Source: a virus (lineage: Duplodnaviria > Heunggongvirae > Uroviricota > Caudoviricetes). From it: a stretch of DNA of 64,000 nt. The translations under genes were made by a program, and so were the position numbers. The notes under the pieces were generated by a model. The model was not told the DNA's origin and did no database searches. It saw nothing but the letters and a program-made list of their open reading frames with translations. The first letter of the stretch is position 1, and each line of letters begins with the position of its first letter. Location: the IMG/VR virus record IMGVR_UViG_3300013004_000034. One strand, 5' to 3'. Shown here piece by piece: positions 1,098-14,577 of the stretch.

Positions 1098-1103
1098 AGA
1101 AAT

Positions 1104-1178: not shown

Positions 1179-1183
1179 AAAAT

Positions 1184-1258: not shown

Positions 1259-1290
1259 ATAAACTTATTTATCATCCGCTCTATGAGATC

Positions 1291-1319
1291 ATATTACCAT
1301 ATTTGAGGTTCTATGTCAA
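1291..1319 (-). promoter_or_regulatory. sigma70-type promoter internal to the tRNA array
   Basis: Minus strand reads TTGACA, a 17-nt spacer, then TAATAT. Confidence 0.45.
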
Positions 1320-1344
1320 CCAAAGAGTTAGTAACCTAGAAGAT

Positions 1345-1419
1345 TGGAGGACCCTCTGGGGATCGAACCCAGGACGTACCGATTAAAAGTCGGTTGTTCT
1401 ACCACTGAACTAAGGGTCC
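1345..1419 (-). tRNA. tRNA-Lys(UUU)
   Basis: Acceptor GGACCCT/AGGGTCC, D arm GTTC-AGTGGTA-GAAC, anticodon arm ACCGA-CTTTTAA-TCGGT, T arm CTGGG-TTCGATC-CCCAG, CCA encoded. Confidence 0.7.
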
Positions 1420-1423
1420 GCAA

Positions 1424-1499
1424 TGGTGACCCCATCGGGGATCGAACCCGATTCTCCGGTTTGAGAGACCGGGATTCTAACCAAATAAACTATGGGGTC
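1424..1499 (-). tRNA. tRNA-Glu(CUC)
   Basis: Acceptor GACCCCA/TGGGGTC, anticodon arm CCGGT-CTCTCAA-ACCGG, T arm TCGGG-TTCGATC-CCCGA, CCA encoded. The D stem has two GU pairs. Confidence 0.5.
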
Positions 1500-1525
1500 G
1501 TGATAATTTGTAATCTACTATGGCT

Positions 1526-1693
1526 TTAACCTTTCCAGTGAAAGCCGGTGATAGGGCTAAAGTAGCCAATCTCTCGGCCGTCAGGCTGGAGAAGTATTGC
1601 CTCAAAACAAGCACGCTTCATATGATTAGTAGCCGCATCCACAGATTGGAAAGACTTGGTATAAGCAAAGTTTGTAAAGCTTACCAGGTACAT
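1526..1693 (-). CDS. small early ORF (55 aa), not in the ORF track
   Basis: An ATG sits directly after the leader GGTCATATCAACAGAGGGA, which follows a consensus promoter. The RBS is GAGGGAA. Confidence 0.3.
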   Translation of the reverse strand: MYLVSFTNFAYTKSFQSVDAATNHMKRACFEAILLQPDGREIGYFSPITGFHWKG

Positions 1694-1720
1694 TGTCTGA
1701 TTCCCTCTGTTGATATGACC

Positions 1721-1749
1721 ATTATAACCGGTCTAGGTCACTTTGTCAA
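1721..1749 (-). promoter_or_regulatory. consensus sigma70-type early promoter
   Basis: Minus strand reads TTGACA-17-TATAAT. It is followed by the leader GGTCATATCAACAGAGGGA, which is shared with the promoter at 2034..2062. Confidence 0.6.
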
Positions 1750-1822
1750 CGGTAGATTTGTTAACTTTTTGTAACCTAGACCGTATACAAGATACCATAT
1801 TCAATTGTCAAAGAGCAAGAAC

Positions 1823-2005
1823 TCAGACTTCCTTAATTCCGTTACAGGAGGCTTTCAGACTCAGAAGAAAGGACGAGTCAGCCTTGAAGAGAGCATGGTC
1901 GATAGCATCATTCTCAGTGTATGCAGTAACCTCGACCAGGAAGAGACCGATAAACTTACCGGATTGACGGTCAGAGATAGCAATCTCAACTTCGAAGTTT
2001 CGCAT
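1823..2005 (-). CDS. small early ORF (60 aa, MRNFEVEIAISD...)
   Basis: Uses the same promoter-leader as 1526..1693. The likely start is the ATG after GAGGGATACGACGAG, and the track ORF extends upstream in the same frame. Confidence 0.35.
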   Translation of the reverse strand: MRNFEVEIAISDRQSGKFIGLFLVEVTAYTENDAIDHALFKADSSFLLSLKASCNGIKEV

Positions 2006-2033
2006 CTCGTCGTATCCCTCTGTTGATATGACC

Positions 2034-2062
2034 ATTATACCAGGATTGTAGGAGGCTGTCAA
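2034..2062 (-). promoter_or_regulatory. consensus sigma70-type early promoter with an upstream palindrome
   Basis: Minus strand reads TTGACA-17-TATAAT. The palindrome ATTACAAATTTGTAAT at 2073..2088 lies just upstream of the -35. Confidence 0.6.
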
Positions 2063-2111
2063 CGGTAGTTTTATTACAAATTTGTAATCTAAGATACTGT
2101 ATACAAAGCGG

Positions 2112-2184
2112 CGAAGGTGGTAGGAGTCGAACCTTCGCCTGCGGTTTTGGAGACCGCCGTGCTACCGTAACACTTCACCGACGC
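2112..2184 (-). tRNA. tRNA-like element, possible degenerate tRNA-Trp(CCA)
   Basis: Anticodon arm GCGGT-CTCCAAA-ACCGC, D arm GTGT-TACGGTA-GCAC and T loop TTCGACT are present. The acceptor pairing is poor, and an 8-bp helix GGCGAAGG/CCTTCGCC competes with it. Confidence 0.3.
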
Positions 2185-2198
2185 AAACTATGCCTTAT

Positions 2199-3635
2199 TT
2201 AGGCATAGCGCTCATGCATGATAGTCTTCATCATAACACCCGTTGGAGTCATATCTTCCATGTCTCCTGAGAGCACGGACTTCAAGATCGAAGGGCTAAA
2301 GCCGGAGACCAAAGCAACTCCACGCTCATTGAACTTCACCGGCACATTGCTAGCTGCCATGATGTTCCAGAACACAATATTCGGAACAGTATAGCCAGCA
2401 GTTTCGTACTTACGGCGAATCATCTGCATTGCAGTATCATCAAAGCGAGTGCACTGGTCAAACTGCATGTCAGACATGATCAGCAGAGTAGCAGGCATCT
2501 CGGACTGAGGTACATCACCCTTGATTGCAACGTCAAGAATCTTCTCAAACGCAGCATGAAGATTGGTATTCATCTCCCACTTCGAAGTTACCATCTGCTG
2601 CACCTTCTGCAGGATATCACCCTTCAGATGCAAAAGCTGAGGGGAAGAAGAGAAGGTCAGGAATGTATCCTTGAACTTGCCCTTGTTCTTATCAGCACAG
2701 TACAGACCAAGGCTGACAGCTACGTCCATTGCGGTAGTCTTACCACCTGCAACACCAGCACCCATTGAGCCAGAGACGTCAACAAGAGCCAACACGTTAG
2801 CATCACCAACGTAGTTAGGCAGAGCATCCCACTGAGCCTTAACGACATCAAGTTCAGTCTTGTTATAGTCTGAACGCCAAGCGTAGTTGCTGACACCCTT
2901 CAGGACGTCATACGGATAAACTGCACCAGCGTTAACCTTTACAGTCTTGTCGCCCTTGACCAGCTTATCAACCCACTCCTTATACTTCGGAGTGTGGCGG
3001 TTGAAGGCCTTCTTATAACGGCTAGCCGCTACAGACGGAACATGAGAGAAGTTGATCTCATCCCAGTTCTTGGCACACATCTGAGTCTCAACAACCTTAG
3101 ATGCAGTGACAAGGGTCTTGCGGTACTGCTTAGGGCTCATGCCGAGCTTATTGCGCAGCTTGACAGCCATAGCACCCTTACGCGGGGTCCACTTGGCACA
3201 CAGACCATCATTGGCCATCAGTGCACGGCCGATCTTGGATGCAACAACATTCTGAATGTCTTCATCTACATCGTCCTCAAGCAGAACCAGAAGGTCATCC
3301 CAACGGCCGAGCTCAGGAGTCTTGTCAATGAGTCGAGTCAGCTCATGACCCATCAGATTCTTTGCTGCATGACGAAGAACCTTACGGTAGATCTCACGCT
3401 CACCTGCACCATTGCGGGCATCACGAGCCCAGAGTGCAATACGAGTGGCAATCTCGGCATCCTCAACAAATGCCGCCGTAAACGCAGGAATAGGATCCTG
3501 TCCACGCAGAGCGCCAATCTTGAAGAAGAGGTCTACGCATGCAGACGCGGTAGAAGCACGAGCCTTCATACCATTCTGAGTTCTGGAATCTTGGTTGATA
3601 ACGGCATTTACGAACGTATTCATCATAATCTCCAT
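2199..3635 (-). CDS. Ro60/TROVE-family protein with a C-terminal vWA (MIDAS) domain, Rsr-like
   Basis: The C-terminal ~190 aa align motif-by-motif to the Ro60 vWA domain: VDVSGSM/DVSASM, TFLTFSSSP, IMSDMQF/FTDNETF, GVALVSGFSPSILKSV/GMLDMCGFDTGALDVI. The N-terminus is alpha-helical and TROVE-like. The real start may be the internal Met at 3623. Confidence 0.65.
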   Translation of the reverse strand: MEIMMNTFVNAVINQDSRTQNGMKARASTASACVDLFFKIGALRGQDPIPAFTAAFVEDAEIATRIALWARDARNGAGEREIYRKVLRHAAKNLMGHELTRLIDKTPELGRWDDLLVLLEDDVDEDIQNVVASKIGRALMANDGLCAKWTPRKGAMAVKLRNKLGMSPKQYRKTLVTASKVVETQMCAKNWDEINFSHVPSVAASRYKKAFNRHTPKYKEWVDKLVKGDKTVKVNAGAVYPYDVLKGVSNYAWRSDYNKTELDVVKAQWDALPNYVGDANVLALVDVSGSMGAGVAGGKTTAMDVAVSLGLYCADKNKGKFKDTFLTFSSSPQLLHLKGDILQKVQQMVTSKWEMNTNLHAAFEKILDVAIKGDVPQSEMPATLLIMSDMQFDQCTRFDDTAMQMIRRKYETAGYTVPNIVFWNIMAASNVPVKFNERGVALVSGFSPSILKSVLSGDMEDMTPTGVMMKTIMHERYA

Positions 3636-3743
3636 AATGTTTAACAGGTTGGACTTGGTTGCTATATCAAAGCTTTAGATGCTGAACCCAACCTAGGGTT
3701 ATAACAGGATCGTTTTTTGCCCCCTCGGGCAGCTGCCAGGTCT

Positions 3744-3775
3744 TGGTTGGCAATGTTGGAGTCGAACCAACTAAA
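3744..3775 (-). ncRNA. isolated T-arm plus acceptor 3' strand plus CCA element (tRNA-like fragment)
   Basis: The reverse complement reads GTTGG-TTCGACT-CCAAC ATTGCCA A CCA. No matching 5' acceptor or canonical anticodon arm lies upstream. Confidence 0.3.
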
Positions 3776-3945
3776 AGGTTTTGCTGAACCGATCCTAGAA
3801 CTAATAAAGTAACAGAGTGGCTCCTACTTCTTTTTTAGCCTTGAGAAATCGAAGAACAAGGTTGTTGGTTTTGCCGAAGCTCCCCAACTGTTCTGGATGC
3901 GCTTGTAGGCGCGACGGTGTTGCTGTAACCACTCTAATATTAGAC

Positions 3946-4037
3946 AGGAAGCCTATAGTGCGGATTTGAACCGCTCCTATCGCGTTGAAGGCGATTGCTC
4001 TACCATTGAGTTAGATATGGTTTGCTGCAAGCTTCCT
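3946..4037 (-). ncRNA. tRNA-like cloverleaf module inside an extended terminal stem; candidate Y-RNA-like or pseudo-tRNA with an opal-reading UCA loop
   Basis: Contains D arm ACTC-AATGGTA-GAGC, a perfect anticodon-type arm ATCGC-CTTCAAC-GCGAT (anticodon UCA) and T arm GCGG-TTCAAAT-CCGC. There is no canonical acceptor stem. Instead a 7-bp terminal stem AGGAAGC/GCTTCCT encloses the module. Confidence 0.35.
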
Positions 4038-4159
4038 AAAACTTGTCGGGATCGTTTTGGTCCGCTAAGACTTACAGGGTTTAGCGTTTTTTGTTTGCTG
4101 AACCGATCCTAATAGTCGGGAATGAGGCTTAGTGAGTGTCTCATTCAATTTATAGGTTG

Positions 4160-4188
4160 ACTATATATCAAATTCCTTGATTTGTCAA
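4160..4188 (-). promoter_or_regulatory. sigma70-type promoter inside the ncRNA region
   Basis: Minus strand reads TTGACA, a 17-nt spacer, then TATAGT. Confidence 0.5.
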
Positions 4189-4237
4189 CCCACTTTTTAC
4201 ATCTGGAGCAGCTTTTTATGGTATAAAGCGCAAAAAT

Positions 4238-4313
4238 TGGTACCCGCTACGGGACTCGAACCCGTCCTGTAAAGATTTTAAGTCTTTTGCCTCTGCCGGT
4301 GGGCTAAGCGGGC
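4238..4313 (-). tRNA. tRNA with anticodon UAA (Leu-reading) but type-I architecture (5-nt variable loop)
   Basis: Acceptor GCCCGCT/AGCGGGT, anticodon arm AAAGA-CTTAAAA-TCTTT, T arm ACGGG-TTCGAGT-CCCGT, discriminator A, CCA encoded. Confidence 0.5.
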
Positions 4314-4314
4314 T

Positions 4315-4391
4315 TGGTAGTCACGGTCGGATTCGAACCGACACTTAACAGATTTTGAATCTGCCGCCTCTGCCAGTTGGGCTACGCGACC
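4315..4391 (-). tRNA. tRNA with anticodon CAA (Leu-reading), type-I architecture; paralog of 4238..4313
   Basis: Acceptor GGTCGCG/CGTGACT with two GU pairs, anticodon arm GCAGA-TTCAAAA-TCTGT, T arm GTCGG-TTCGAAT-CCGAC, discriminator A, CCA encoded. It shares the D-arm sequence GCCC..GGCAGAGG with its neighbour. Confidence 0.45.
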
Positions 4392-4399
4392 ATATTTCC

Positions 4400-4873
4400 T
4401 TATAGAGTATTTATATCATATATGTAGTTGTCTGTCAACTCATTTTCGCAAAAAAGTTTGGCACCGTTAGTAAGATGGAACTTACGAGCCATGGCAGTCT
4501 TAGGGCTGAGAGTACAGGCTACTTTAGTATACGGTCTTGTTGCTTTGATGTGCCGCAGTGTCTTGTTTAAGACTTCGCGTCCAGCTCCTGAAACATTGCT
4601 CCAGACCGTGTAAAAGCATGCTACATTTTGACGCGAGACGTCTACAAAGAGATCATCTTCAATTGTAGGAATATCATCTAGATAAGCAACGCATGTAACT
4701 GCACGCACAAAATAATTTTCGCTGAGCAAAAAGTACTCACGATTATGAGCCACTCTTTGCCATGCTGGGATATGAGGTCTGACAGGATCACCTATCAAAC
4801 ACCCTTCCCAGCAAGATCTAAAGTCACGTACTACAGTCAGTTGATGCATTGGCGGTTTCCGTTCTAAACACAT
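4400..4873 (-). CDS. hypothetical protein (weak GNAT-like pattern)
   Basis: 157-aa ORF. The pattern VSGAGREV ... ARKFHLTNGAKL is loosely acetyltransferase-like. Confidence 0.3.
   Translation of the reverse strand: MCLERKPPMHQLTVVRDFRSCWEGCLIGDPVRPHIPAWQRVAHNREYFLLSENYFVRAVTCVAYLDDIPTIEDDLFVDVSRQNVACFYTVWSNVSGAGREVLNKTLRHIKATRPYTKVACTLSPKTAMARKFHLTNGAKLFCENELTDNYIYDINTL
4410..4438 (-). promoter_or_regulatory. sigma70-type promoter driving the tRNA/ncRNA/Ro60 transcription unit
   Basis: Minus strand reads TTGACA-17-TATAAA, about 20 nt upstream of the first tRNA. Confidence 0.5.
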
Positions 4874-5123
4874 TCTCTGATGTATCTATCGGTTCTCCAC
4901 CAAAGAACTTAATGACTATACGAAGTGCACTGGCATAATTCTCATAATGAGTAATAGTGTCGATGTGATGCTGTGCATCCTCACAGCTCTTATCCATTAC
5001 AGCAATGGACTCAAATTCTAGAACTGACGTACAGGCATCGAGTGCTGCCTGACAATGCTTGACTACAATTTCGTCAAGTTGCTCATCATCTACCTTTACG
5101 TAGAGGTTTCCATTAATTTCCAT
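4824..5123 (-). CDS. hypothetical protein
   Basis: 99-aa ORF in the operon context. Confidence 0.3.
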   Translation of the reverse strand: MEINGNLYVKVDDEQLDEIVVKHCQAALDACTSVLEFESIAVMDKSCEDAQHHIDTITHYENYASALRIVIKFFGGEPIDTSENVFRTETANASTDCST

Positions 5124-5332
5124 TATTCATTCTTTCCTAGAATGTCAATACGCTTACATTCAAGACATGCAGCATAGCCACACGACCTGAGGAAGTCTTC
5201 AAACTTACCAATCACATCATAAACAGATAGATCGGCGCCTTGCATTTGAATATTAACACGGTCTACAATAGGAATGCCGGACTCCGATATACTAGTCGGA
5301 GCATACATCTCAAAGGTAAAGTGCTGTTGCAT
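5123..5332 (-). CDS. hypothetical protein
   Basis: 69-aa ORF. Confidence 0.25.
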   Translation of the reverse strand: MQQHFTFEMYAPTSISESGIPIVDRVNIQMQGADLSVYDVIGKFEDFLRSCGYAACLECKRIDILGKNE

Positions 5333-5336
5333 TATA

Positions 5337-6368
5337 TCACTCCTCGTTCTTCAGTAGCCAGCGATTACTAATAATCTTGAAGCTAGTGTCATTAGCCATA
5401 TTCTTGTACACCATTCCTTCGCGAGGCGGCTTCTTACCAATTAGAGACTGGCCATCGGCCGATGCAATTAGTGCATTAACGTCAGAAGTGCCAGTCGTTC
5501 CGGTAGCAAGCACAGGAACATGATTGAAGGCAAAGGCCTTGCAAAACTTACGGCGCTCATCGGGAGTCAGGTAGCAAGACTTGTTGATATCCCAGACATC
5601 AAAGACAAAGAAGTCGGTGGCATCAAGACCATACTTATTGCCCTGAATACCAGGGCCAATCAGCTCGCCCTGCAGAGCAAAACCTGCAGGAAGGCGCTGG
5701 TCGATATCTTCACGACGAACAGCCTGCCAGAATGCATTGCCTTCGGTCTCTTCCAGATCATAGTTACGAGAGCAGACACCGGTCACATCATTGTGCCGAT
5801 AAACCGTCATCGAAGAGCCATCAAGCTTCTCGGTAACTTCCCACCGAGCGCCTTCCTCTTCCCAACGACGGATGTCCTTAGTAAGATTCTGAACGCGTTC
5901 CTGATCAGTCTTGCGCAGGAAGCTAGGGAAATTACCCTTGACTACACCGGCAAGAGAACCATGAATGGGCTTTTCGTACTTCTGAATCTGAAGATACTCG
6001 GTCAGATCATCACCCTCTACAAGATAGTCAATATCACAAATGTACGAGTTGGAATCCCGTTCATCAAATGTGGCTACAGCAGACACCGGGAGCAGAAGTC
6101 CCTGGCTGATCTGCTTACAAAGCTTAATTGTTCGCAGACGTTCACCCTCAACTCCGTTGTACGTACGGCCACGGTTCAGGAAAGGCGCAATAGCCTTTGG
6201 AATCCAAGAGTCAATCTCAAAGTACACAGCCAGATCACCGACCTGGAAGTCGCCCTTCTTGACTACAACCTTCCATCCGTCAACCGTAGCTACGTCAATA
6301 GCATCAGCATCAGGGATGGGCTGAATGTCCGCAACGCGACGGACGGTAGCAAGCTTACGATCAGACAT
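5337..6368 (-). CDS. ATP-dependent RNA ligase-like nucleotidyltransferase with an N-terminal OB / tRNA-binding-like domain
   Basis: Covalent nucleotidyltransferase motifs are present: I TEKLDGSS, IV EGMVYK, V FKIISNRWLLK. The N-terminus (ADIQPIPDADAIDVATVDGWKVVVKKGDFQVGDLAVYFE) resembles a Trbp111/EMAP-type tRNA-binding fold. A promoter lies at 6394..6422. Confidence 0.55.
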   Translation of the reverse strand: MSDRKLATVRRVADIQPIPDADAIDVATVDGWKVVVKKGDFQVGDLAVYFEIDSWIPKAIAPFLNRGRTYNGVEGERLRTIKLCKQISQGLLLPVSAVATFDERDSNSYICDIDYLVEGDDLTEYLQIQKYEKPIHGSLAGVVKGNFPSFLRKTDQERVQNLTKDIRRWEEEGARWEVTEKLDGSSMTVYRHNDVTGVCSRNYDLEETEGNAFWQAVRREDIDQRLPAGFALQGELIGPGIQGNKYGLDATDFFVFDVWDINKSCYLTPDERRKFCKAFAFNHVPVLATGTTGTSDVNALIASADGQSLIGKKPPREGMVYKNMANDTSFKIISNRWLLKNEE

Positions 6369-6393
6369 ATCAATTCCTTTCCTTATAGCCTCA

Positions 6394-6422
6394 TTATACC
6401 AGGCTGGTAGGCGGCTGTCAAC
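6394..6422 (-). promoter_or_regulatory. consensus sigma70-type early promoter with an upstream palindrome
   Basis: Minus strand reads TTGACA-17-TATAAT. The palindrome ATTACAAATTTGTAAT lies at 6432..6447. Confidence 0.6.
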
Positions 6423-6468
6423 GGTAGTTTTATTACAAATTTGTAATCCGTTAACAGCCTATACCAAC

Positions 6469-6903
6469 TTACCTGACAGCCCGCGGTTGCATCTGCTGCT
6501 GGATCTGCTGAGTCTGCTGCTGGATCCAAGTTTGAAGAAGATTAATGGACGGATCAACTACATCCTGTACACGCTGGTGAGTCATGACTCGTTCGCCAAT
6601 TTCAGAAGCGGCAATTAGCAGCACGGTCTGACGGTTTGGAATTAGTGAAGTGGTAATACCTACAATTGTCATAGCAGCAAAAAATGCACATGAAAGCTTA
6701 AATGCCGCTACCTTTCGCTTTCGCCGAAGTGTTAGAATCGGTTCACTGAGTGGCCTAAAATCAGGCTGTTCATCCATATGGACAAAAGCAACAATAACAG
6801 CACCAATTGTTGCAATAGCAAAGAGAATCGTTATAAAAACCAGAAAGCCTGAAAGACTTTCTGCAACATTAGCGGCATAAATCAGCCAAGAAAGCGAATT
6901 CAT
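6469..6903 (-). CDS. small membrane protein (possible NfeD-like partner of the SPFH protein)
   Basis: Hydrophobic N-terminal helices (LVFITILFAIATIGAVIVAFV), and it lies immediately downstream of the SPFH gene. Confidence 0.35.
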   Translation of the reverse strand: MNSLSWLIYAANVAESLSGFLVFITILFAIATIGAVIVAFVHMDEQPDFRPLSEPILTLRRKRKVAAFKLSCAFFAAMTIVGITTSLIPNRQTVLLIAASEIGERVMTHQRVQDVVDPSINLLQTWIQQQTQQIQQQMQPRAVR

Positions 6904-7728
6904 TTAGCGAGTCCCCGGAAGGTTAATGAATGGCACACCATTTGTAGCAGCGGGCAGCTGTCCGTTCCACTTCTGCGCAGCCATGTACTGAACAAGCTCA
7001 GGTGTAATGCTCAGCGCAATGATGCGGTTAGCTGCAGCCTGTCCATCAGCCTCAATCCGCTGGCGCTCGGCTTCCTGACGTGCAGTCTCTACCTGCTGTC
7101 GGCGCTGTTCAGTTTCCTGACTTGCAGTGATACGGCGATTGATAGCTGCTTCGGTTTCTGCTGCCAGTCGGAATCGGCCCACAGCATATACGTTGTCGAC
7201 AATAATGCCGTGTGGGGCCATACGCTCCTTAACCGTCTTGAGTACTTCATCCATAAATGCATTCTTACCTTCACCAATCAGATCCTCGATGCGGCGAGTA
7301 CTAGCGGCACTGGTAAGTGCATCACGGACTTCATTGCGAAGAGTCTGTCGAGTAATCTCGATTGCACCCATACGATATCGGGCAAAGATGTCCGGAATAC
7401 GATCTCGCTGAAAGCTATATTGAATGCCAAAGTCGCTGTTGATATTAGCACCCTCGCGGCTCTGAAAGTCAATGGCTTCGTCGGTAGGACTCTGCGGAGT
7501 GATTGCCTTTGTCCATACATAGTTTTGCACGAACGTGGGGAATGTGTAGAGCCGCTCAGTGAAACCAATCCAGTGACGACCAGGCTCAAGCAGAGCACGC
7601 TGCACACCTCGCTCACCACCAGCAGTAGTGACCTTAACACCTACGGTGCCAGGCTCAATATAGTCACATGCTGCAGTGGTCGACAGAACCAGAGCACTAA
7701 TAGCAAAGGTCTTAGCAATCTTATTCAT
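6904..7728 (-). CDS. SPFH/band-7 (prohibitin/HflC-like) domain lipoprotein
   Basis: Signal peptide with a Cys (LSTTAAC), then an SPFH-like core and an alanine/glutamate-rich coiled tail (ETEQRRQQVETARQEAERQRIEADGQAAANRI). Confidence 0.45.
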   Translation of the reverse strand: MNKIAKTFAISALVLSTTAACDYIEPGTVGVKVTTAGGERGVQRALLEPGRHWIGFTERLYTFPTFVQNYVWTKAITPQSPTDEAIDFQSREGANINSDFGIQYSFQRDRIPDIFARYRMGAIEITRQTLRNEVRDALTSAASTRRIEDLIGEGKNAFMDEVLKTVKERMAPHGIIVDNVYAVGRFRLAAETEAAINRRITASQETEQRRQQVETARQEAERQRIEADGQAAANRIIALSITPELVQYMAAQKWNGQLPAATNGVPFINLPGTR

Positions 7729-7729
7729 A

Positions 7730-7993
7730 TCAATTCTTCTCCATGATGCGGTTGATATACTTTATGAGGGAAGCAAGCTGCGCATAGAGCGTCAGGGTTA
7801 CAAAAAGGATAGCAAAAGGCAATGCTATAAAGACAAGTTCACTCTCAAGTGAAAATACCTTTGGAACATACACCATAACTAGGATGGCAGTCACACAGAT
7901 GCCTGTAATTCGCGTTACAAAATTGGCAACTGTACTAAACTTTGGAGTCATTCTTATTCCTCTTCTGCAATAAGTCGGATAATGTGACGGCAC
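7730..7993 (-). CDS. small membrane protein
   Basis: 87 aa with two hydrophobic helices. Confidence 0.3.
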   Translation of the reverse strand: MPSHYPTYCRRGIRMTPKFSTVANFVTRITGICVTAILVMVYVPKVFSLESELVFIALPFAILFVTLTLYAQLASLIKYINRIMEKN

Positions 7994-8021
7994 TTGTTAA
8001 ACTTTCGTAATCCGGTATACA

Positions 8022-8234
8022 CTATTCTTCGTTTTTGGAACTGAAATTTTCAAACATGTTTTCAATGGCTTCGTACGTATGCTCTTCAAGCACACCCGGA
8101 GCTACACCCTTGTTGATATAGTAGCTAATCAAAAGCTCGAGCTCGATAACAAAGGACTGTTCCAGAGTAGCTTCCATGTTCATACCTTTCCCTTTTGATG
8201 ATGTCATTATAACAAATTCAGGGGGGGCTGTCAA
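8022..8234 (-). CDS. hypothetical protein
   Basis: 70-aa ORF directly downstream of the promoter at 8206..8234. Confidence 0.3.
   Translation of the reverse strand: MTAPPEFVIMTSSKGKGMNMEATLEQSFVIELELLISYYINKGVAPGVLEEHTYEAIENMFENFSSKNEE
8206..8234 (-). promoter_or_regulatory. consensus sigma70-type early promoter with an upstream palindrome
   Basis: Minus strand reads TTGACA-17-TATAAT. The palindrome ATTACAAATTTGTAAT lies at 8245..8260. Confidence 0.6.
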
Positions 8235-8272
8235 CTGGAGTTTTATTACAAATTTGTAATCTTAGGCAAGGC

Positions 8273-8548
8273 TCAGAGCATGTCAAGCAGGCGGCCATGA
8301 CCGTCAACTGCCCGAATCCGGTGGTTCGGGAACTGCCGTTGGGCATTCTGCAGTGCCATGTTCATGCTGAAGCCATCGTTGGCAATGCCGGTATAAACGC
8401 CTGCAGGAAACCAGGTTCCACCATGTGGCGACTGAGCTTGGATGTTTACGATGCGGCTCTTATGGTCATTGTCTGCATTTGCATTGGCTGCATGATTGGC
8501 CGCCAAGCTATTAACAAAGGCGTTACCAAAGATCTTCAGAAAATCCAT
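8273..8548 (-). CDS. hypothetical protein (GC-rich island)
   Basis: 91-aa ORF with markedly higher GC than the flanking phage genes. Confidence 0.35.
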   Translation of the reverse strand: MDFLKIFGNAFVNSLAANHAANANADNDHKSRIVNIQAQSPHGGTWFPAGVYTGIANDGFSMNMALQNAQRQFPNHRIRAVDGHGRLLDML

Positions 8549-8571
8549 GTCATGGATCCTTTTTGGTTGAC

Positions 8572-8844
8572 TTAGTAGTAATGTCGACGGGTGTCGTCGG
8601 TGTCAATAAAATTGCACCGGTATTTGGCCAAATACCGGAAGCCACGGTAGTTCCCAGTGGAATGCAGGACATCACACAAAATGGCATTCATAGCTTCCCG
8701 ACCTTCCCGGCCGCAAGTGCTGGTGGCCAGTGCCTTGTTGACCGTGTCCCTCAGATAGTCCACCGAAACCGTCTTCCGAGCCATGGCTTTGGCATCCTCT
8801 GTTGATAGTTTCTTTATATCACAATCAGCTATTAAAGTCACCAA
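8572..8844 (-). CDS. hypothetical protein (GC-rich island)
   Basis: 90-aa ORF with an upstream degenerate copy of the palindrome (TTGTATCAGTTTGTAACA). Confidence 0.35.
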   Translation of the reverse strand: MVTLIADCDIKKLSTEDAKAMARKTVSVDYLRDTVNKALATSTCGREGREAMNAILCDVLHSTGNYRGFRYLAKYRCNFIDTDDTRRHYY

Positions 8845-8854
8845 GAGTTTTGTA

Positions 8855-9301
8855 TCAGTTTGTAACAGGGATCCGTTCGGCTTTCAGCTCACACCTAACC
8901 GTGTGCCGACACTTGCGGTGGAACTGCCACCCAGTACAAGTGCAAGACCAGACTCGAGTCTGACCATTGAGATGGACGGTATACACTTCACCGGTCTTAG
9001 ACGAAGTCACATTGTATACTCTATCCTTAGCCTTGACCTTAGACTTGAGTGGCGCATCATTGACTGACAGAATCCGATGCTCAGGAATGTAGTTGAGAAC
9101 TTTGGACTCTGAGTTAAGAAGACAGAAGTGAGGGCCCTTGAGCCAGGCAGGCGCCACGACCACAGTACCACGGAGTACATCAGACTTTCGGGCCCTATGC
9201 AGGGAGTCATAGGCAAAGTACTGCAGCGTATGGCTCATGTCAATAGTAACCTCTACCATGGATCCTACCGGATAATCCATCATAGTATCCTTATTTGTCA
9301 C
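8855..9301 (-). CDS. SWIM zinc-finger protein
   Basis: The C-terminus SCTCTGWQFHRKCRH fits the CxCx(n)CxH SWIM signature. Confidence 0.4.
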   Translation of the reverse strand: MTNKDTMMDYPVGSMVEVTIDMSHTLQYFAYDSLHRARKSDVLRGTVVVAPAWLKGPHFCLLNSESKVLNYIPEHRILSVNDAPLKSKVKAKDRVYNVTSSKTGEVYTVHLNGQTRVWSCTCTGWQFHRKCRHTVRCELKAERIPVTN

Positions 9302-9306
9302 TACCT

Positions 9307-9335
9307 ATTATATACGGCTCCGAGCCAAAAGTCAC
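9307..9335 (-). promoter_or_regulatory. sigma70-type promoter (GTGACT-17-TATAAT) for the 8855..9301 operon
   Basis: On the minus strand, with the palindrome-like TTGTAACAGATTGTAAC upstream. Confidence 0.4.
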
Positions 9336-9624
9336 CACTAGTTTTGTAACAGATTGTAACCGTCATTCCAGGTCCATAGGGCTAGAGAACGGTAAAGAAT
9401 AAAAACTTAATTAGATCAATGGTTTAGCCAAACTCATCGCTATAGTAAAACCTAATTAAATCAATGGTTTAGTCAAGAAGTTCAGCTACCAACGATCTAA
9501 GTTGCTCTAATGGTAAGTAAACCCACTAAGGTTGCTTAGATCGCTGGTAGCTGATTGCAAAAAAGTTCAAAAAGTTTGTCCAATAAGCTCAATGTGTTAG
9601 ATCTAAGTTGTTGATCTAATTGGG

Positions 9625-9653
9625 TTGACAAACATCCTAGGATCGGTTATAAT
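9625..9653 (+). promoter_or_regulatory. consensus promoter TTGACA-17-TATAAT plus the shared leader CCACTCATCAACCAAGGGA
   Basis: Plus strand. This is the first of three near-identical promoter-leader cassettes. Confidence 0.65.
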
Positions 9654-9680
9654 CCACTCATCAACCAAGGGATTGCCCAC

Positions 9681-9923
9681 ATGACCCGAGCCCGCCTGGA
9701 TCTTTCCCGGAACCTCACGGAAAAGCGGGTTCCCGCTGAACTCCAAGGTCATGCGGCTTACCGTCTGGTCATCTGGGTAGTCGATCAGGATACGGGCTCT
9801 AAGTCTGTATACGATATCTATGAAGGGGTCGGCAAGTTTGCCATCTACCTGTTCAACCGCCAGCGGACCTCTTGGGCCAATGACAGCCTCCTGGTTGATC
9901 TGGAGCCTGCCGTCTACGTCTAA
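9681..9923 (+). CDS. hypothetical protein (GC-rich cassette gene 1)
   Basis: 80-aa ORF about 12 nt after the leader AAGGGA, with GC near 60%. Confidence 0.45.
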   Translation: MTRARLDLSRNLTEKRVPAELQGHAAYRLVIWVVDQDTGSKSVYDIYEGVGKFAIYLFNRQRTSWANDSLLVDLEPAVYV

Positions 9924-9984
9924 CTTTGCTATTGACTTTCATTCCTAGTTTGGTTATAGTGTACCTTCCAAAAGGAGAGATAAA

Positions 9985-10143
9985 GTGACCCTTACGGCAT
10001 ACAAGAACGGAAAGCTGGCCTTCGTCTGGGGCCTGGACAACAAGGCCTCGGCCATGCGGGAGGCCCTTCGCTGGCTCCGCATGGGTCGTGGCCGGGCAGC
10101 CGAGATCAGCATCGGTGACGCGGTCATCTGGTACCGAGGCTGA
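9985..10143 (+). CDS. small ORF with a GTG start (52 aa)
   Basis: The RBS AAAGGAGAG sits 8 nt upstream of GTG, giving VTLTAYKNGKLAFVWGLDNKASAMREALRWLRMGRGRAAEISIGDAVIWYRG. Confidence 0.3.
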   Translation: MTLTAYKNGKLAFVWGLDNKASAMREALRWLRMGRGRAAEISIGDAVIWYRG

Positions 10144-10173
10144 TCGGATTACAAATTTGTAATAAAACTCCAG

Positions 10174-10202
10174 TTGACTTGACCTGGTGGATCGGTTATA
10201 AT
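10174..10202 (+). promoter_or_regulatory. promoter TTGACT-17-TATAAT with the shared leader
   Basis: Preceded by the palindrome ATTACAAATTTGTAAT at 10148..10163. Confidence 0.6.
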
Positions 10203-10230
10203 CCACTCATCAAAAGGAAAGGGTACAAAC

Positions 10231-10437
10231 ATGGAACTTTTTGTGGTTGACCACGGTGACTCCTACGAACGGTATACCATCGGTGTCGCTCGCTCGCTGG
10301 ATGAAGCTCGGGACATGGCTCGGGCCTACCTGGCTGCTCTGCGCCATCCCGCTTCGTCGATTGACTTTTTCGGTGTGACCCGCTTCGAAGCGGGTGTGGC
10401 GGGTGATTCTGATCATGAAGCACTCACCCTGGGTTAA
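10231..10437 (+). CDS. hypothetical protein (GC-rich cassette gene 2)
   Basis: 68-aa ORF after the leader CCACTCATCAAAAGGAAAGG. Confidence 0.45.
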   Translation: MELFVVDHGDSYERYTIGVARSLDEARDMARAYLAALRHPASSIDFFGVTRFEAGVAGDSDHEALTLG

Positions 10438-10458
10438 CGATTTGTAATAAATATCTGG

Positions 10459-10487
10459 TTGACAGCTCGCCCCAGATAGGTTATAAT
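10459..10487 (+). promoter_or_regulatory. consensus promoter TTGACA-17-TATAAT with the shared leader
   Basis: Third copy of the cassette. Upstream is TTTGTAATAAA, a half palindrome. Confidence 0.65.
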
Positions 10488-10505
10488 CCACTCATCAACC
10501 AAGGG

Positions 10506-10994
10506 ATGACCTACATGACTAACATCATCAAGCAGACCACCCGCGAAGGTCTCTATGTTTCGGATATCATCGGCGCCCGCTATCAGGTCCTTGAGTCCGA
10601 TGTTTTCCACGGGTCATACTTTGTATACGATCTGGTCAAGGACGATCTACTCCGCTCTCGGGATGGCAGCTGCAAGTACTTTGATGATGTGGCATCGGCC
10701 ATGGCGGTGGCCGATGGTGCGGCACCTGCCGAGGTTTCCAAGACTTCGAAGGCGCTGAAGGCTCCCAAGGGTTCGAAGGAACCGAAGGAACCGAAGGTGG
10801 CCGAGCCCAAGTCGACCGAACCGAAGGTCAAGAAGCCGTCGGCCAACTCGATGATCATCGACCTCATCAAGACCACCAAGCTCTCCGATGACGAGATCTC
10901 GGCGGAAATTGTGAAGCTCTTCCCCGACTGCAAGACCTGCAAGCCCTACGACGTGAAGTACCGCCGCCGTAAGGTTGACGCGGGTGAGATCTAA
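10506..10994 (+). CDS. basic protein with K/P/E-rich repeats (histone-H1-like tail); possible nucleoid-binding factor
   Basis: The repeat run KALKAPKGSKEPKEPKVAEPKSTEPKVKKP is flanked by globular N- and C-terminal parts. Confidence 0.4.
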   Translation: MTYMTNIIKQTTREGLYVSDIIGARYQVLESDVFHGSYFVYDLVKDDLLRSRDGSCKYFDDVASAMAVADGAAPAEVSKTSKALKAPKGSKEPKEPKVAEPKSTEPKVKKPSANSMIIDLIKTTKLSDDEISAEIVKLFPDCKTCKPYDVKYRRRKVDAGEI

Positions 10995-11028
10995 GACTAA
11001 GTCTTAACTCAACTAACGGGAGGTTGAT

Positions 11029-11301
11029 ATGCTTATTGTTTCTACCAGCATGTTCGATTACGACCGTAAGACCAAGACTTTTTATACGGATGCATCCACA
11101 CTTGAGGCCAACAACCGCCCGCGCCCCCTTGACTTGGAAGGCGGTCGGTGGTGCATGCGTCTCCGGTCGCATAAGACCGGAATTGTTGTGAAATTTGTTC
11201 ATACCAACGAAATTAGAGATAGTGAAGGTGAACTTATGGCAGTTGTTTTTAAGGGTACTGATAGCCACAGCGATCTAAGTCTAAGTATTTTGAATGACTA
11301 A
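11029..11301 (+). CDS. hypothetical protein
   Basis: 90-aa ORF in the plus-strand operon. Confidence 0.35.
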   Translation: MLIVSTSMFDYDRKTKTFYTDASTLEANNRPRPLDLEGGRWCMRLRSHKTGIVVKFVHTNEIRDSEGELMAVVFKGTDSHSDLSLSILND

Positions 11302-11855
11302 TGCTTATAACCTTAGTAGACGTTCCGAGTAAATTTGATACGTGTGAGCTATTCAACGCCATAGTTTTTTATGGCGAAAAGCTCATGAGCAAGCGTATGC
11401 TTGCTGGAATAGATTTAAACATTGTATTTGTACCCAGACTTGAAAAGGACTATATTATAGTTGCTGATTGCGAGTGGGCAGATGATAGTGTTCGCCCACG
11501 CGAATTCGCAGTACGTCTTGATGCCGACATGGGCAAGAGGAAAATGCTTATTGCACTTGCTCACGAAATGGTTCATATCAAGCAGTATGCTAAAGGTGAA
11601 ATGCGCGATATGATGAAGCAGAACCACACTAAATGGTTTCGCGAAACGATAGATACAGATAAAGCTGACTACTGGGATTTGCCGTGGGAAATAGAAGCAT
11701 ATGGCCGAGAAACAGGTCTCTATATAAGATTTAAACGTTATTGGTGGAAGGATGCAAAAAATGCAAAAGCAGCCTACAAAGCGCAACCCGATTGCGCGGG
11801 CTCTTCGCACACCTTTATTCTCAAAAAGGGTTGTGAAGAGCAAAAAGACTTATAA
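11301..11855 (+). CDS. putative zinc metallopeptidase (HExxH)
   Basis: The sequence ALAHEMVHIKQ contains an HExxH motif. This is SprT/ImmA-like by size. Confidence 0.35.
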   Translation: MLITLVDVPSKFDTCELFNAIVFYGEKLMSKRMLAGIDLNIVFVPRLEKDYIIVADCEWADDSVRPREFAVRLDADMGKRKMLIALAHEMVHIKQYAKGEMRDMMKQNHTKWFRETIDTDKADYWDLPWEIEAYGRETGLYIRFKRYWWKDAKNAKAAYKAQPDCAGSSHTFILKKGCEEQKDL

Positions 11856-11909
11856 CCGAAAACAAAAGAGGTCAGATCCACTAAGGACTGACCTCTTTCA
11901 GTATGTAGT

Positions 11910-12278
11910 CTAAGGCGCATCTACCATTAGGTATTGCGCTTTTTTGTTTATCTGGTGATTATTGGCCTCGAGTACAGCGCGAGCTTTTTCCAGCTGTAAG
12001 ACACACTTACGAATGGTATCCCTCACAACTGCATCATTAGTATCGTCTTCCAGGTCAAGTAAAGCCGCTTGTAAATTTGCATCAACTGATTTATCTATAA
12101 TCATAGTAAGCCCGTCCATTTCCTTTTCTTCCGGTTCCGGAAATAGAAGTTCTGTAACTTCTTGTAGAGCCGAATCTCTAAGTATTACAGGCTTTGGATA
12201 AAATTTATTCATAATATATTGTTTAATCACTGGTCTAGCTTCTTCTTTCCTATGGTGTACTTGGATTCTAGAATCCAT
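11910..12278 (-). CDS. hypothetical protein
   Basis: 122-aa ORF downstream of regA. Confidence 0.3.
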   Translation of the reverse strand: MDSRIQVHHRKEEARPVIKQYIMNKFYPKPVILRDSALQEVTELLFPEPEEKEMDGLTMIIDKSVDANLQAALLDLEDDTNDAVVRDTIRKCVLQLEKARAVLEANNHQINKKAQYLMVDAP

Positions 12279-12643
12279 TCCTTCTTTTCTTTAAAGGGAA
12301 TGATCTTAATGCTGGAAATTTTAGCCTTAGGCTCTTGATACTTATCAGCTGATACTATAAGCAGCAGTCCCCATTCCTCTAGAAGATGAGCAATGGCATT
12401 GCGCCTACTCATATCTTCCTCGGTAAAGTCGGACTGCTTGCCATCTAGCAAGAAAAGCTCTTTAAAGTGTACTAGGTAGTACTTTCCACGCTTGTGTAGA
12501 ATATGACAGGATTGGTATAGCTTCTTTTCTTTTCTAGAAGCTATACCAATCCGTGTCAAGGTTTCCTTCACCTTGAGGAAGTCCTCATTATTGGTTAGTT
12601 GTATCTCTAAGAAGGTGTCGGTCAAGCTCATGGTAGTACCCAT
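12227..12643 (-). CDS. regA: RegA translational repressor
   Basis: Strong similarity to T4 RegA as I recall it: EDFLKVKETLTR.GIA...K.LYQSCHIL.K.G.YY.VHFKE. Confidence 0.75.
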   Translation of the reverse strand: MGTTMSLTDTFLEIQLTNNEDFLKVKETLTRIGIASRKEKKLYQSCHILHKRGKYYLVHFKELFLLDGKQSDFTEEDMSRRNAIAHLLEEWGLLLIVSADKYQEPKAKISSIKIIPFKEKKEWILESKYTIGKKKLDQ

Positions 12644-12658
12644 ATTGTTTTTACTTAT

Positions 12659-13186
12659 TTATTTTTTAGCATTCTTTGTGTCGGGGTATACATAGCGCTC
12701 AAGAAAGTCTTTCTTTTGATCATCAGACAGGACAGACCAGAATTGCTTGGTCCTCTTTAGATTAAACTGTGTAACTCCTGCCACATCTTTAAGAGTCTTA
12801 AGTTCCTTCTTTTCAGATTCAGACCGCTTAAGCCATCCTCCCTGCTTCCATCGCTTACGTTTTTTCACGCTATAAAACAAATAGTCGTGCTGCATACGCT
12901 TATCTAGATGATAGTTCATATTCAAGAACTCACCCGCCACAAACGTATCAGTAAAAATTGTCATGGCACGATTGAGTGTGTAAGGATCATATTCGGAAGC
13001 AGTATCATCAGCATAGAGATACTGCTTACCAAAGTTAATATCATTTACATAGTCAAAGACATTAAACTTCTTTTCTACTTCGACATCAACTGTAACCGCC
13101 TTCACCCTACCAAAGAGGGTGGAGACAGCACCAGTATCAGCAACAACTTCCTTCTTTGGAATTACCTTCTTTTTCACTTTTCCCAC
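12659..13186 (-). CDS. 62: clamp-loader small subunit (gp62-like)
   Basis: Assigned by synteny between regA and gp44, and by size (175 aa). Confidence 0.45.
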   Translation of the reverse strand: MGKVKKKVIPKKEVVADTGAVSTLFGRVKAVTVDVEVEKKFNVFDYVNDINFGKQYLYADDTASEYDPYTLNRAMTIFTDTFVAGEFLNMNYHLDKRMQHDYLFYSVKKRKRWKQGGWLKRSESEKKELKTLKDVAGVTQFNLKRTKQFWSVLSDDQKKDFLERYVYPDTKNAKK

Positions 13187-14115
13187 TCACAGCGCATCAT
13201 CACCTCCACAAAGAAAGCAATGAGATTGATCTCATGATCAGCCACAAAGGCCGCCTTGTATTGATAGTCAGCAATGATTACCACAAGTTCCGGGATGGAC
13301 TTCTTGTCAACAAGTTCAAATGCCCCTTCGTAGATCGATCGGAATACGTTGACCTGCTCTTGATCCGAATTGTCATGCACCCACTTCCGGATGGCATCAA
13401 AGTCCTTCTTCTTACATGCCTCAAGCACCTGACGGACAGTAAGATCCTGGAAGTTGGTAAGAATACCAGAGTCGATTGCACCACTGGCGCTATAGCGCTG
13501 AAGCTCATTAAGAACTCGACGCCAGTCAGGGAAGTGCTTCTGGATAACAGTACCGACAACAGTACGGTCGTACTTGACCTGTTCCTTCTCTAGAATAGTC
13601 TCGGTGCGCTTGAAGAACTGAGAGGCAAGCTTGGGCTTGCAACCCTTAGGAACCACAAAGTCGATTACAGAGCACCGAGAGTGAAGCGGCTTGATGATAC
13701 GATTCTTGTAATTGCAAGTCAGAATGAAGCCGCAGTTCTTAGAAAACTCTTCCATAAAGTTACGAAGAGCCGGCTGGGTAGAATTCTGATTGAGGTAATC
13801 GGCCTCGTCAAGAATTACATACTTGCGGCCACCCTGAAGAGAGACCGACGATGCAAAGGTGAGAATCTCATTTCGAAGGGTATCGATGTTACCATTCATT
13901 GAGCCGTTGATCACAATGTAGTCACAGTCAAGCTCTTCAAGCATGGCACGTGCCACAGTTGTCTTGCCGACACCCGCACTACCAGACAGCAGCAAGTTAG
14001 GAATATTCTTTTGATCGACAAACGTCTGGAAAATTGTCTTAAGTTCAACAGGCAGAATAGTATCACTAATATTCTTAGGGCGATATTTTTCACACCACAA
14101 AAATTGCTCGAGCAT
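13174..14115 (-). CDS. 44: clamp-loader ATPase (gp44-like)
   Basis: Walker A GSAGVGKTT, an SRC-type motif, and overall similarity to T4 gp44. Confidence 0.8.
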   Translation of the reverse strand: MLEQFLWCEKYRPKNISDTILPVELKTIFQTFVDQKNIPNLLLSGSAGVGKTTVARAMLEELDCDYIVINGSMNGNIDTLRNEILTFASSVSLQGGRKYVILDEADYLNQNSTQPALRNFMEEFSKNCGFILTCNYKNRIIKPLHSRCSVIDFVVPKGCKPKLASQFFKRTETILEKEQVKYDRTVVGTVIQKHFPDWRRVLNELQRYSASGAIDSGILTNFQDLTVRQVLEACKKKDFDAIRKWVHDNSDQEQVNVFRSIYEGAFELVDKKSIPELVVIIADYQYKAAFVADHEINLIAFFVEVMMRCEWEK

Positions 14116-14117
14116 GT

Positions 14118-14513: not shown

Positions 14514-14536
14514 TATAAAGAAGGGGAAGTAGTATC

Positions 14537-14566
14537 ATTATACCACCTCCCCTCGATGTTTGTCAA
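14537..14566 (-). promoter_or_regulatory. sigma70-type promoter (TTGACA-18-TATAAT)
   Basis: Minus strand, upstream of 14118..14513. Confidence 0.4.
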
Positions 14567-14577
14567 CTAATAAAACT

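Follow-up and report, generated by a model that had tools for sequence, protein, structure and literature searches.

A probable cassette-shuffled early-gene region downstream of regA in an uncultured freshwater T4-like phage

The window analysed here is a stretch of 64,000 nt from IMG/VR record IMGVR_UViG_3300013004_000034 (Caudoviricetes), which lies on a 64.7-kb freshwater metagenome contig of the Joint Genome Institute and derives from an uncultured, T4-like phage; the same phage recurs across many metagenome samples. The genes gp46, gp45, gp44, gp62 and regA lie on its minus strand (Table 1), and uvsW, gp23, gp20 and gp18 are also encoded farther along the window. Downstream of regA lies a series of small open reading frames (ORFs) preceded by similar promoter-leader segments, termed cassettes below. 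Comparison with related phages suggests that this is, quite probably, a cassette-shuffled and hyperplastic region of early genes, situated between regA and gene 43 (DNA polymerase) in a clade of freshwater T4-like myoviruses. Two side points of note are the maintained codon bias of one early gene and a conserved non-coding block.

Genes and promoter-leader cassettes downstream of regA

The nearest cultured relatives, as judged by gp44, are Stenotrophomonas phage DLP6 (60%), Methylophilales phage Melnitz (58%) and cyanophages (53-56%), and a megablast search of positions 8000-11300 against the INPHARED phages gave no match. The relatives used for comparison are L020, a close relative from IMG/VR that is collinear with the window over 8188-14568 at about 90% nucleotide identity, L123, whose regA is 95% identical to that of the window, and a set of sister phages, defined as long contigs with homologues (L100, L102, L104, L115, L116 and L117). 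The gp44 of the sisters is 84-91% identical to that of the window and their core proteins are 60-84% identical, with L117 at about 60%.

All six ORFs that an earlier note on this DNA had listed between 8273 and 10437 were found, and the likely true starts of three genes of the region were placed at 8784, 9280 and 10515. The ratio of nonsynonymous to synonymous divergence (dN/dS) of these ORFs as compared to L020 is 0.05-0.5, which indicates that they are real genes. Scans of ten ORFs against Pfam and PHROG returned only a sub-threshold SWIM match (PF04434; 17.2 bits, E 0.0037, below the cut-off of 19.6) and a match of o11301p to phrog_10499 (E 4e-29), a PHROG of unknown function. In the SWIM protein, C113-x-C115-x8-C124-x-H126 is invariant in 19 homologues, and the AlphaFold2 model (predicted local distance difference test score 84.6) displays beta-barrels and a zinc finger; a search of this model against the PDB gave no match at E<0.05. 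In the protein o10506p, a beta/alpha domain at the N terminus and a three-helix domain at the C terminus are joined by a disordered linker rich in Lys and Pro.

Database searches yielded 45 homologues of o10506p and 21 of the SWIM protein, all of them metagenomic and without a Pfam domain, as are the 11 homologue clusters of o9985p (at least 73% identity); the two long contigs examined for the latter, L122 and L123, belong to the sub-lineage of the window. Homologues of o8572m with 44-48% identity occur in L102, L104, L116 and L117. For o8273m, a 47% homologue is found in L117 and short matches occur elsewhere; about 14 distant IMG/VR loci also have weak homologues downstream of regA. The identification of o10231p with the 66-73-aa gene that precedes o10506p in the sisters was rejected, as the two families are unrelated.

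The triplicated cassette described in the earlier note was recovered: the 20-mer GGTTATAATCCACTCATCAA occurs exactly three times on the plus strand (9645, 10194 and 10479), with none expected in shuffled sequences, and each copy stands behind a TTGAC(A/T) -35 box (9625, 10174 and 10459) with a 17-nt spacer. However, the 33-mer that had been reported as identical at three genes is exact at 9640 only; the copy at 10474 has two mismatches and that at 10189 diverges past CATCAA. Nor is the cassette particular to these three genes, since the same architecture recurs on the minus strand, with weaker copies elsewhere (Table 1). Alignment of the cassettes gave a common layout of an AT-rich block (about -38 to -60), TTGACA, a 17-nt spacer, TATAAT, a leader of about 25 nt with ATCAA, and a Shine-Dalgarno sequence (AAGGGA, AGAGGGA or AAGGAG) 6-9 nt ahead of ATG or GTG. 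A 16-nt palindrome, ATTACAAATTTGTAAT, is found ahead of four promoters, and two others have a half-copy; ahead of P9932 no hairpin was found.

This family comprises about 12 near-consensus sigma-70 members across 1.3-10.5 kb, and each small ORF, or operon of two to three ORFs, has one cassette ahead of it. Positions 1-13000 contain six perfect 12/12 matches to TTGACA-N17-TATAAT against 0.01 in Markov controls, and nine sites with at least 11 of the 12 consensus positions against 0.29 expected. The remaining 51 kb of the window contains one perfect site, so that six of the seven lie in 1-13000. The members at 1291..6460 indicate that the family is in use over the whole variable region. Judged by its sequence, the cassette would thus be the general early promoter of the phage and not a feature special to the island.

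Some cassettes are also related to one another beyond the promoter itself. P8234 and P10174 form a 90-nt inverted repeat that is 80% complementary, and the promoter at 8787..8870 belongs with 9328-9360 to repeat family D4 and is 97.6% identical in L020. The promoter and leader of P9335 are orthologous and conserved in L100, L102 and L104. As for P10459, an orthologue of gatcggtTATAATCCAC..ATCAAC.GGAG precedes the o10506p orthologue in L100, L102, L104 and L116; its promoter-leader is therefore orthologous across the clade and represents the ancestral copy.

In the GC-rich sisters L100, L102, L104 and L116 (e.g. L100 9948-10000), the early leaders share ..CAACGGAGACAGAC-ATG with GGAG as the Shine-Dalgarno sequence, in place of which the leaders of the window mostly have AAGGGA or AGAGGGA. 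GGAG is the motif that T4 RegB cleaves in early mRNAs. The plus-strand operon behind P10459 converges with the regA-o11910m transcript, and the predicted terminator between them folds at -24.6 kcal/mol on the plus strand and -30.4 kcal/mol on the minus strand (z score -4.4 for both), with flanking T runs.

Table 1. Genes, promoters and other features of the region downstream of regA and its surroundings
Feature	Position	Strand	Description
gp46	22628-24337	-	
gp45	14578-15231	-	
gp44	13174-14115	-	
gp62	12659-13186	-	
regA	12227-12643	-	
Terminator	11866..11900	.	Bidirectional, intrinsic; predicted
o11029p and o11301p	11029..11855	+	90 aa, and 184 aa with HExxH; distal genes of the P10459 operon
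o10506p	10515..10994	+	159 aa from ATG 10515; clade-conserved early protein
P10459	10438..10514	+	Perfect consensus; CCAC...ATCAAC leader
o10231p	10231..10437	+	68 aa; MELFVVxFGDSYER family, 13 representatives; dN/dS 0.30
P10174	10144..10230	+	Palindrome, TTGACT, 17-nt spacer, TATAAT, leader CCACTCATCAA; 98.9% identical in L020
o9985p	9985..10143	+	52 aa; most GC-rich ORF (64.8% GC, GC3 0.81); dN/dS 0.17
P9932	9924..9984	+	TTGACT, 17-nt spacer, TATAGT; Shine-Dalgarno AAGGAGAG; 93% identical in L020
o9681p	9681..9923	+	80 aa; dN/dS 0.49; GC3 0.654
P9625	9585..9680	+	Perfect consensus; spacer, -10, leader and first codons as a P10459-type copy
Non-coding block	9366..9624	.	260 bp, between divergent early promoters
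P9335	9281..9365	-	GTGACT, 17-nt spacer, TATAAT; leader AGGTAGTGACAAATAAGGA; ahead of the SWIM gene
Putative SWIM-zinc-finger protein	8855..9280	-	141 aa; beta-barrel domains, then C-terminal CxCx8CxH; dN/dS 0.05
Probable weaker early promoter	8787..8870	-	GTGACT, 17-nt spacer, TATAAA; upstream block GTTACAAACTGATACAAAACT; leader CTATCAACAGAGGA; read from sequence
o8572m	8572..8784	-	70 aa; ATG 8784 favoured over TTG 8844; 70-aa gene also called by JGI (Joint Genome Institute); GC3 0.648
o8273m	8273..8548	-	91 aa; second gene of operon with o8572m; dN/dS 0.14; GC3 0.565
P8234	8160..8262	-	Palindrome ATTACAAATTTGTAAT, TTGACA, 17-nt spacer, TATAAT, leader, Shine-Dalgarno; perfect 12/12; ahead of o8022m (8022-8207)
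Stronger -35 boxes	1749, 2062, 6421, 8234	-	Same architecture
Weaker -35 boxes	9932; 9335, 4188, 1319; ~8843	+; -; -	The one at ~8843 probable
Further family members	1291..6460	-	-35 at 1319, 1749, 2062, 4188, 6421; palindrome at 2073, 6432
GC3, GC content at third codon positions.

Probable recombination at the cassettes

The region had been proposed to be a plastic hotspot in which the promoter-leader serves as a reused expression cassette, and both proposals are borne out by the relatives: their differences from the window comprise complete units of cassette plus ORF, and the junctions of these lie within the cassettes. One such case is L123, in which o9681p, o9985p and o10506p are present and the 285-nt unit of o10231p is missing. 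Between o9985p and o10506p, L123 has a single cassette, the left half of which is that of P10174 (palindrome, TTGACTTG, GGATCGGTTATAATCCACTCATCAA) and the right half that of P10459 (CCAAGGGATGACC..ATGACCAAC), with the junction in the common GGTTATAATCCACTCATCAA core. Such a hybrid would be the expected recombination product of direct copies 285 nt apart, or the substrate of the reverse insertion. Natural variants thus hold both states of one locus, the parental one with two cassettes and the recombinant one with a single cassette.

Another junction is found at P9625. The window and L020 are 96-97% identical through the SWIM gene, P9335 and the intergenic block, and become unalignable exactly past TTGAC. 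At this site, L020 and all sisters carry another spacer and leader (..GGTATAAAGAG.CTAT.AACA..), as compared to the window, which carries a P10459-type tract through the first codons. The P9625 copy would therefore represent a conversion specific to the lineage of the window. Since P9625 appears to be converted, and L020 has two copies of the core as compared to three in the window, the triplication would be a recent conversion, whereby the ancestral promoter-leader of o10506p would have been copied onto two neighbouring ORFs.

Replacement and relocation of units are also evident. Beyond the -10 box of P8234, which is common to both, a 61-aa ORF follows in the window, as compared to about 1.56 kb in L020 that contains four to five other ORFs and an extra cassette; the two sequences meet again at o7730m. 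The orthologues of o9681p in L100, L102 and L104 (55-59%) are found across the non-coding block and in the opposite orientation, on the strand of the SWIM gene, whereas in the window, L020 and L123 o9681p lies on the strand of o10506p. Similarly, o10231p is absent from its site in L123 and L122, with a homologue on the other strand in L122, and in L124 a homologue lies elsewhere in the variable region behind a SWIM-type leader, TATAATCGGTAGTGACAAA.

These observations suggest a mechanism in which the 25-60 nt of identity shared by the cassettes would provide portable homology for recombination, so that cassette-plus-ORF units may be deleted, inserted, replaced, converted and moved across the divergent promoter region. 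As judged from the promoters, the genes behind the cassettes would be transcribed by the host RNA polymerase directly after infection.

The early promoters of T4 are sigma-70 dependent, with an extended conserved consensus and A-rich UP-like elements, and they resemble the cassettes in that many copies of a long conserved consensus stand before small non-essential early genes. They differ in having a GTTTAC-type -35 box as compared to the TTGACA/TATAAT found here, where the conservation also extends into the transcribed leader.

A closer counterpart is found in the promoter-early stem-loop (PeSL) cassettes of the hyperplastic regions of RB49/phi1, T4/PST and KVP40/nt-1 (Arbiol et al. 2010, PMC2839356; Comeau et al. 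2014, PMC4122927). Common to both are an AT-rich block, a near-perfect sigma-70 promoter with a 17-nt spacer, a Shine-Dalgarno sequence and the start codon of a small ORFan, as well as the clustering of cassettes in a variable region between core modules, six of the seven perfect sites of the window lying beside family-less ORFs in 1-13000. Insertions, deletions and replacements among close relatives with in-cassette junctions (L123, P9625 and P8234) are likewise shared, and the tandem pair around one ORF with a single recombinant cassette in a relative has the topology of the minicircle excision/integration model, as far as can be read from the sequence. The cassettes of the window differ from PeSL in that the upstream stem-loop appears to lack terminator quality and is absent or non-palindromic in about half of them, and in that the phages concerned are only remotely related to the T-even, pseudo-T-even and schizo-T-even groups (their gp44 reaches at most 60% identity with that of any cultured phage). 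Plasticity by cassette recombination is thus already described for T4-type phages and is an ordinary kind of feature for T4-like phages. The present observations would extend such shuffling, so far known from a few cultured T4-type coliphages and vibriophages, to an abundant uncultured freshwater clade.

Composition, gene 43 and rival explanations

The interval 8270-10500 had been described as a compositionally foreign island of 55-60% GC. Its measured GC content is only 49.1% (0.37-0.54 in 300-nt windows), because the intergenic sequence at 9300-9620 is AT-rich. The ORF at 10506..10994, which had been set apart as lower in GC, is among the richest (55.8% GC; GC content at third codon positions, GC3, 0.755), so that the compositional block ends near 10994 and not at 10437. 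By ORF, the GC content is 56-65% for the plus-strand and 50-53% for the minus-strand genes, as compared to 41% for the rest of the window. The windowed composition and codon-usage check thus upheld the claim in part, in that the seven ORFs at 8273-10994 are GC3 outliers (GC 0.50-0.65, GC3 0.55-0.81), the bulk GC being lower than claimed. The genes at or beyond 12227 have a GC content of 0.415 and a GC3 of 0.36 (standard deviation 0.09), and the signal therefore resides mainly in third codon positions. GC3 returns to backbone-like values in o11029p (0.46) and o11301p (0.40).

The codon usage displays a monotonic gradient from the island through the replication genes to the late genes, the island avoiding A-ending codons. 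Within their amino acids, the fractions in the three classes, respectively, are 0.03, 0.16 and 0.39 for ACA, 0.02, 0.13 and 0.51 for AGA, 0, 0.08 and 0.27 for ATA, and 0, 0.04 and 0.13 for TTA. The codons that are read by the phage tRNAs Thr-TGT, Leu-TAA and Lys-TTT are enriched in the late genes. The GC3 of gp23 (29278-30657, minus strand) is 0.45, the highest among the late genes (others 0.22-0.38), which fits a codon bias linked to expression level.

Genome GC varies widely in the clade, being 50-54% in L100, L102, L104 and L116 (core GC3 0.60-0.88), as compared to 42% in the lineage of the window, 43% in L115 and 42% in L117. This spread of 8-12 points exists despite 77-84% identity in gp44, gp62 and regA, and in the core tree the low-GC lineages do not form one monophyletic group.

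The earlier note had placed the island where gene 43 would be expected. A DNA polymerase gene is indeed absent from the window. The adjacency of regA and gene 43 is, however, specific to T4 and absent in the relatives: DLP6 has 13 genes (5.7 kb) between the two, and in cyanophage S-H38 no gene 43 was found within about 7.5 kb downstream of regA. In L116 an outer-membrane beta-barrel gene lies about 9.3 kb from regA, and in L124 a distance of about 9.6 kb separates the beta-barrel gene from that of a family-B DNA polymerase (840 aa), located at the distal end of the small-ORF region. These two distances together suggest that about 19 kb of small ORFs separate regA and gene 43 in the clade. As the window contig stops about 340 nt past coordinate 1, gene 43 would simply be off the contig.

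How the GC-rich genes and the repeated cassettes arose may be explained in more than one way. The idea that the island consists of morons or of host-takeover or anti-defence genes, recently acquired from a GC-rich donor and inserted in the place of gene 43, would account for a GC3 that is 2-5 standard deviations above the core, for a promoter of its own ahead of every ORF, for proteins without a Pfam or PHROG family (the sub-threshold SWIM match apart), and for o9985p and o10231p, which are limited to the sub-lineage of the window or to other positions in the variable region. Lambdoid morons are autonomous promoter-gene-terminator units, often deviant in GC, and the present genes resemble them in being small, with promoters of their own and a GC content off the backbone; they differ in having no flanking terminators, in being syntenic and conserved in the clade rather than sporadic between essential genes, and in that bacterial homologues were not found. 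What makes such a recent acquisition very unlikely is the distribution of the genes. Four of the seven (SWIM, o9681p, o10506p and o8572m) have orthologues after regA in L100, L102, L104, L116 and L117, down to a core identity of about 60%, although order and strand vary, and those of o11301p and o4400m are found in the post-regA region of the sisters as well; o10506p keeps its divergent strand layout there. Compositional deviation thus need not mark horizontal acquisition in this case, and the same genes at a syntenic place in relatives, which had been named beforehand as the observation that would speak against it, were largely found for these four. Furthermore, a search of 185,579 bacterial and archaeal genomes gave no tblastn-confirmed relative of o10506p, and the homologues are without exception metagenomic, with all contigs that were examined for context belonging to phages of the clade. 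The tree pairs of o10506p and SWIM agree with the core tree, a GC3 just as high is found for the o10506p orthologue in other low-GC lineages, and in none of the relatives examined is gene 43 next to regA. Still less credible is the view that the cassettes are identical by convergent selection for an optimal promoter and leader, with the differences in gene content due to unrelated illegitimate events. Consensus promoters are strongly constrained, and identical -35 and -10 hexamers would be expected anyway, but here the identity covers non-consensus positions (the spacer GGATCGG and the leader CCACTCATCAA), the junctions of the L123 hybrid and of the P9625 tract fall exactly at the edges of common sequence, and the same leader types precede different genes in different phages.

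A better, though on balance rather unlikely, explanation is that the GC-rich alleles are recent imports from the GC-rich sisters via conserved flanks or cassettes, partly ameliorated toward the 41% backbone. The sisters, at 50-54% GC, hold the same genes, and the island genes fall below them in GC3 by 0.12-0.15, as compared to 0.19-0.39 for core and flanking genes; the window and L020 display a mosaic synonymous divergence (dS), with higher values in the plus-strand block, and the GC3 of SWIM is 0.37 in the low-GC L117 as compared to 0.55 in the window. Against this, the o10506p alleles of three low-GC lineages group together, apart from those of the GC-rich lineages, with a GC3 of 0.74-0.82 across 64-74% amino-acid identity, which suggests long maintenance, and no donor allele above 86% identity occurs among the 45 homologues. 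The o10506p orthologue has a GC3 of 0.81 in L115 and 0.74 in L117, where the other genes range over 0.28-0.50, and it has the highest GC3 in the GC-rich sisters too. The trees and these GC3 values indicate that for this gene the bias is old and maintained, and not a recent foreign mark; one recent import from the GC-rich sisters as the sole cause of the bias is thereby rejected for o10506p. Allele exchange with them is likely to contribute for some genes.

Under the cassette-shuffling interpretation, the high GC would instead be a third-codon-position bias of early genes on a backbone that has shifted toward AT relative to the sisters. Synonymous sites of genes that are expressed strongly and very early may be under selection that maintains this bias, which is the least certain step; G/C-ending codons preferred by the host would be favoured before the phage tRNAs for A-ending codons appear. 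A GC-rich patch in a phage is then not necessarily foreign; here it is the backbone that is the compositional outlier in the clade, and one early gene has kept G/C-ending codons through deep divergence.

Several observations weigh against this interpretation. The palindrome ahead of the promoters folds only into a 6-bp A/U hairpin of -3.1 kcal/mol (z score +0.56) without a U tract and so lacks a terminator-grade stem-loop; a terminator role was rejected on folding energy, and the palindrome is read as an UP-element-like block. For each of the events, the comparison alone fits deletion or insertion. The genes o1526m, o1823m, the RNA ligase gene and o8022m stand behind the same promoter type with an ordinary GC3 (0.46-0.52), and early expression alone therefore cannot explain the bias. 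Lastly, the dS between the window and L020 is 0.13 for SWIM and the core and 0.23-0.73 for the plus-strand block, a mosaic that import of alleles also fits.

A host-derived origin was rejected as well, because a bacterial homologue of o10506p was not found.

The non-coding block and other features of the window

The block between P9335 and P9625, to which repeats D6, I4, I5 and I6 belong, contains direct half-sites, ATCAATGGTTTAG, at 9415 and 9460, i.e. 45 nt apart, within direct repeats of 30 nt, an imperfect inverted repeat at 9482-9554 with an invariant centre AAACCCA, an A/T tract, and a palindrome at about 9588-9615, an inverted pair of half-sites, that abuts the -35 box of P9625. The identity of the block to that of L020 is 96%, and the block can be aligned in 10 distinct phage contigs including L117 and is more conserved than many of the proteins of these phages. 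The inverted repeat at 9482-9554 would form a hairpin of -37.5 kcal/mol (z score -6.0). As it lies between divergent promoters, it is probably not transcribed. Its role as a structured RNA was not supported, since one pair covaries and the pairs are mostly invariant, and no Rfam match was obtained.

This conservation makes the block a candidate for the regulation or the control of replication in these phages. It resembles T4 oriE, where direct repeats at even spacing and early-mode promoters coincide with a change of the transcribed strand and the role of the iterons is unproven (review PMC3016281), in that it lies at a strand switch with two direct repeats and early promoters on both sides. 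It differs in having only two direct copies plus inverted ones and no sequence similarity to T4, and the resemblance is one of sequence features. That the block acts as a control element particular to the clade is a speculative and on the whole improbable proposal, in which it would be either an early replication origin resembling oriE or a master operator of the divergent immediate-early promoters, with the adjacent and equally conserved o10506p binding the ATCAATGGTTTAG half-sites; within this proposal, an oriE-like role and an array of operators for a clade-specific regulator are equally possible. The N-terminal domain of o10506p is weakly AP2-like and its Lys/Pro linker is basic. Among the relatives, only L122 has an o10506p that is highly divergent (34% identity), and most of the block is lost there, which is consistent with a link between the two.

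Elsewhere in the window, ARAGORN identified 11 tRNA genes clustered at 862-4391 on the minus strand, one of which (3951-4020) has the anticodon TCA, is labelled as selenocysteine (SeC) by the program and is opal-suppressor-like. An Rfam search at a permissive E-value over 1-13000 returned only tRNAs, with an extra one at 79-151 (minus strand; 30.7 bits) that ARAGORN did not call, and a YrlA (Y RNA-like) match at 991-1055, overlapping tRNAs, was sub-threshold. A DUF2828/DUF7788 protein (2199-3635) and an RNA ligase (PF09414; 5337-6368), both on the minus strand, adjoin the cluster; together with the YrlA-like match and the tRNAs they could form an RNA-repair module. Between the homologues of o5123m and the RNA ligase gene, L020 (reverse complement, about 630-1370) has an added segment of about 740 nt at 36-38% GC that the window is without (about 5356-5360). 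The Band-7/SPFH gene (6904-7728, minus strand) has a dS of 1.5 as compared to L020, with its neighbours at 0.27-0.43, which suggests that this allele may have been replaced within collinear surroundings.

Directly upstream of gp45, at 16418-19103 on the minus strand, a UDP-glucose dehydrogenase, an NAD-dependent epimerase and a TAGT-family glycosyltransferase are encoded, a set that is conserved in all sister contigs and may constitute a sugar pathway for DNA hypermodification. The gp45-gp44 module of the sisters contains added genes, namely a Tad2-like gene (PF11195) in L102 (3821-4084) and a GIY-YIG endonuclease gene in L100 (13367-13924). In the tail-fibre/baseplate region, a 593-aa protein (53132-54913, minus strand) displays a weak match to bactofilin-like repeats (PF04519, E 2.4e-7).

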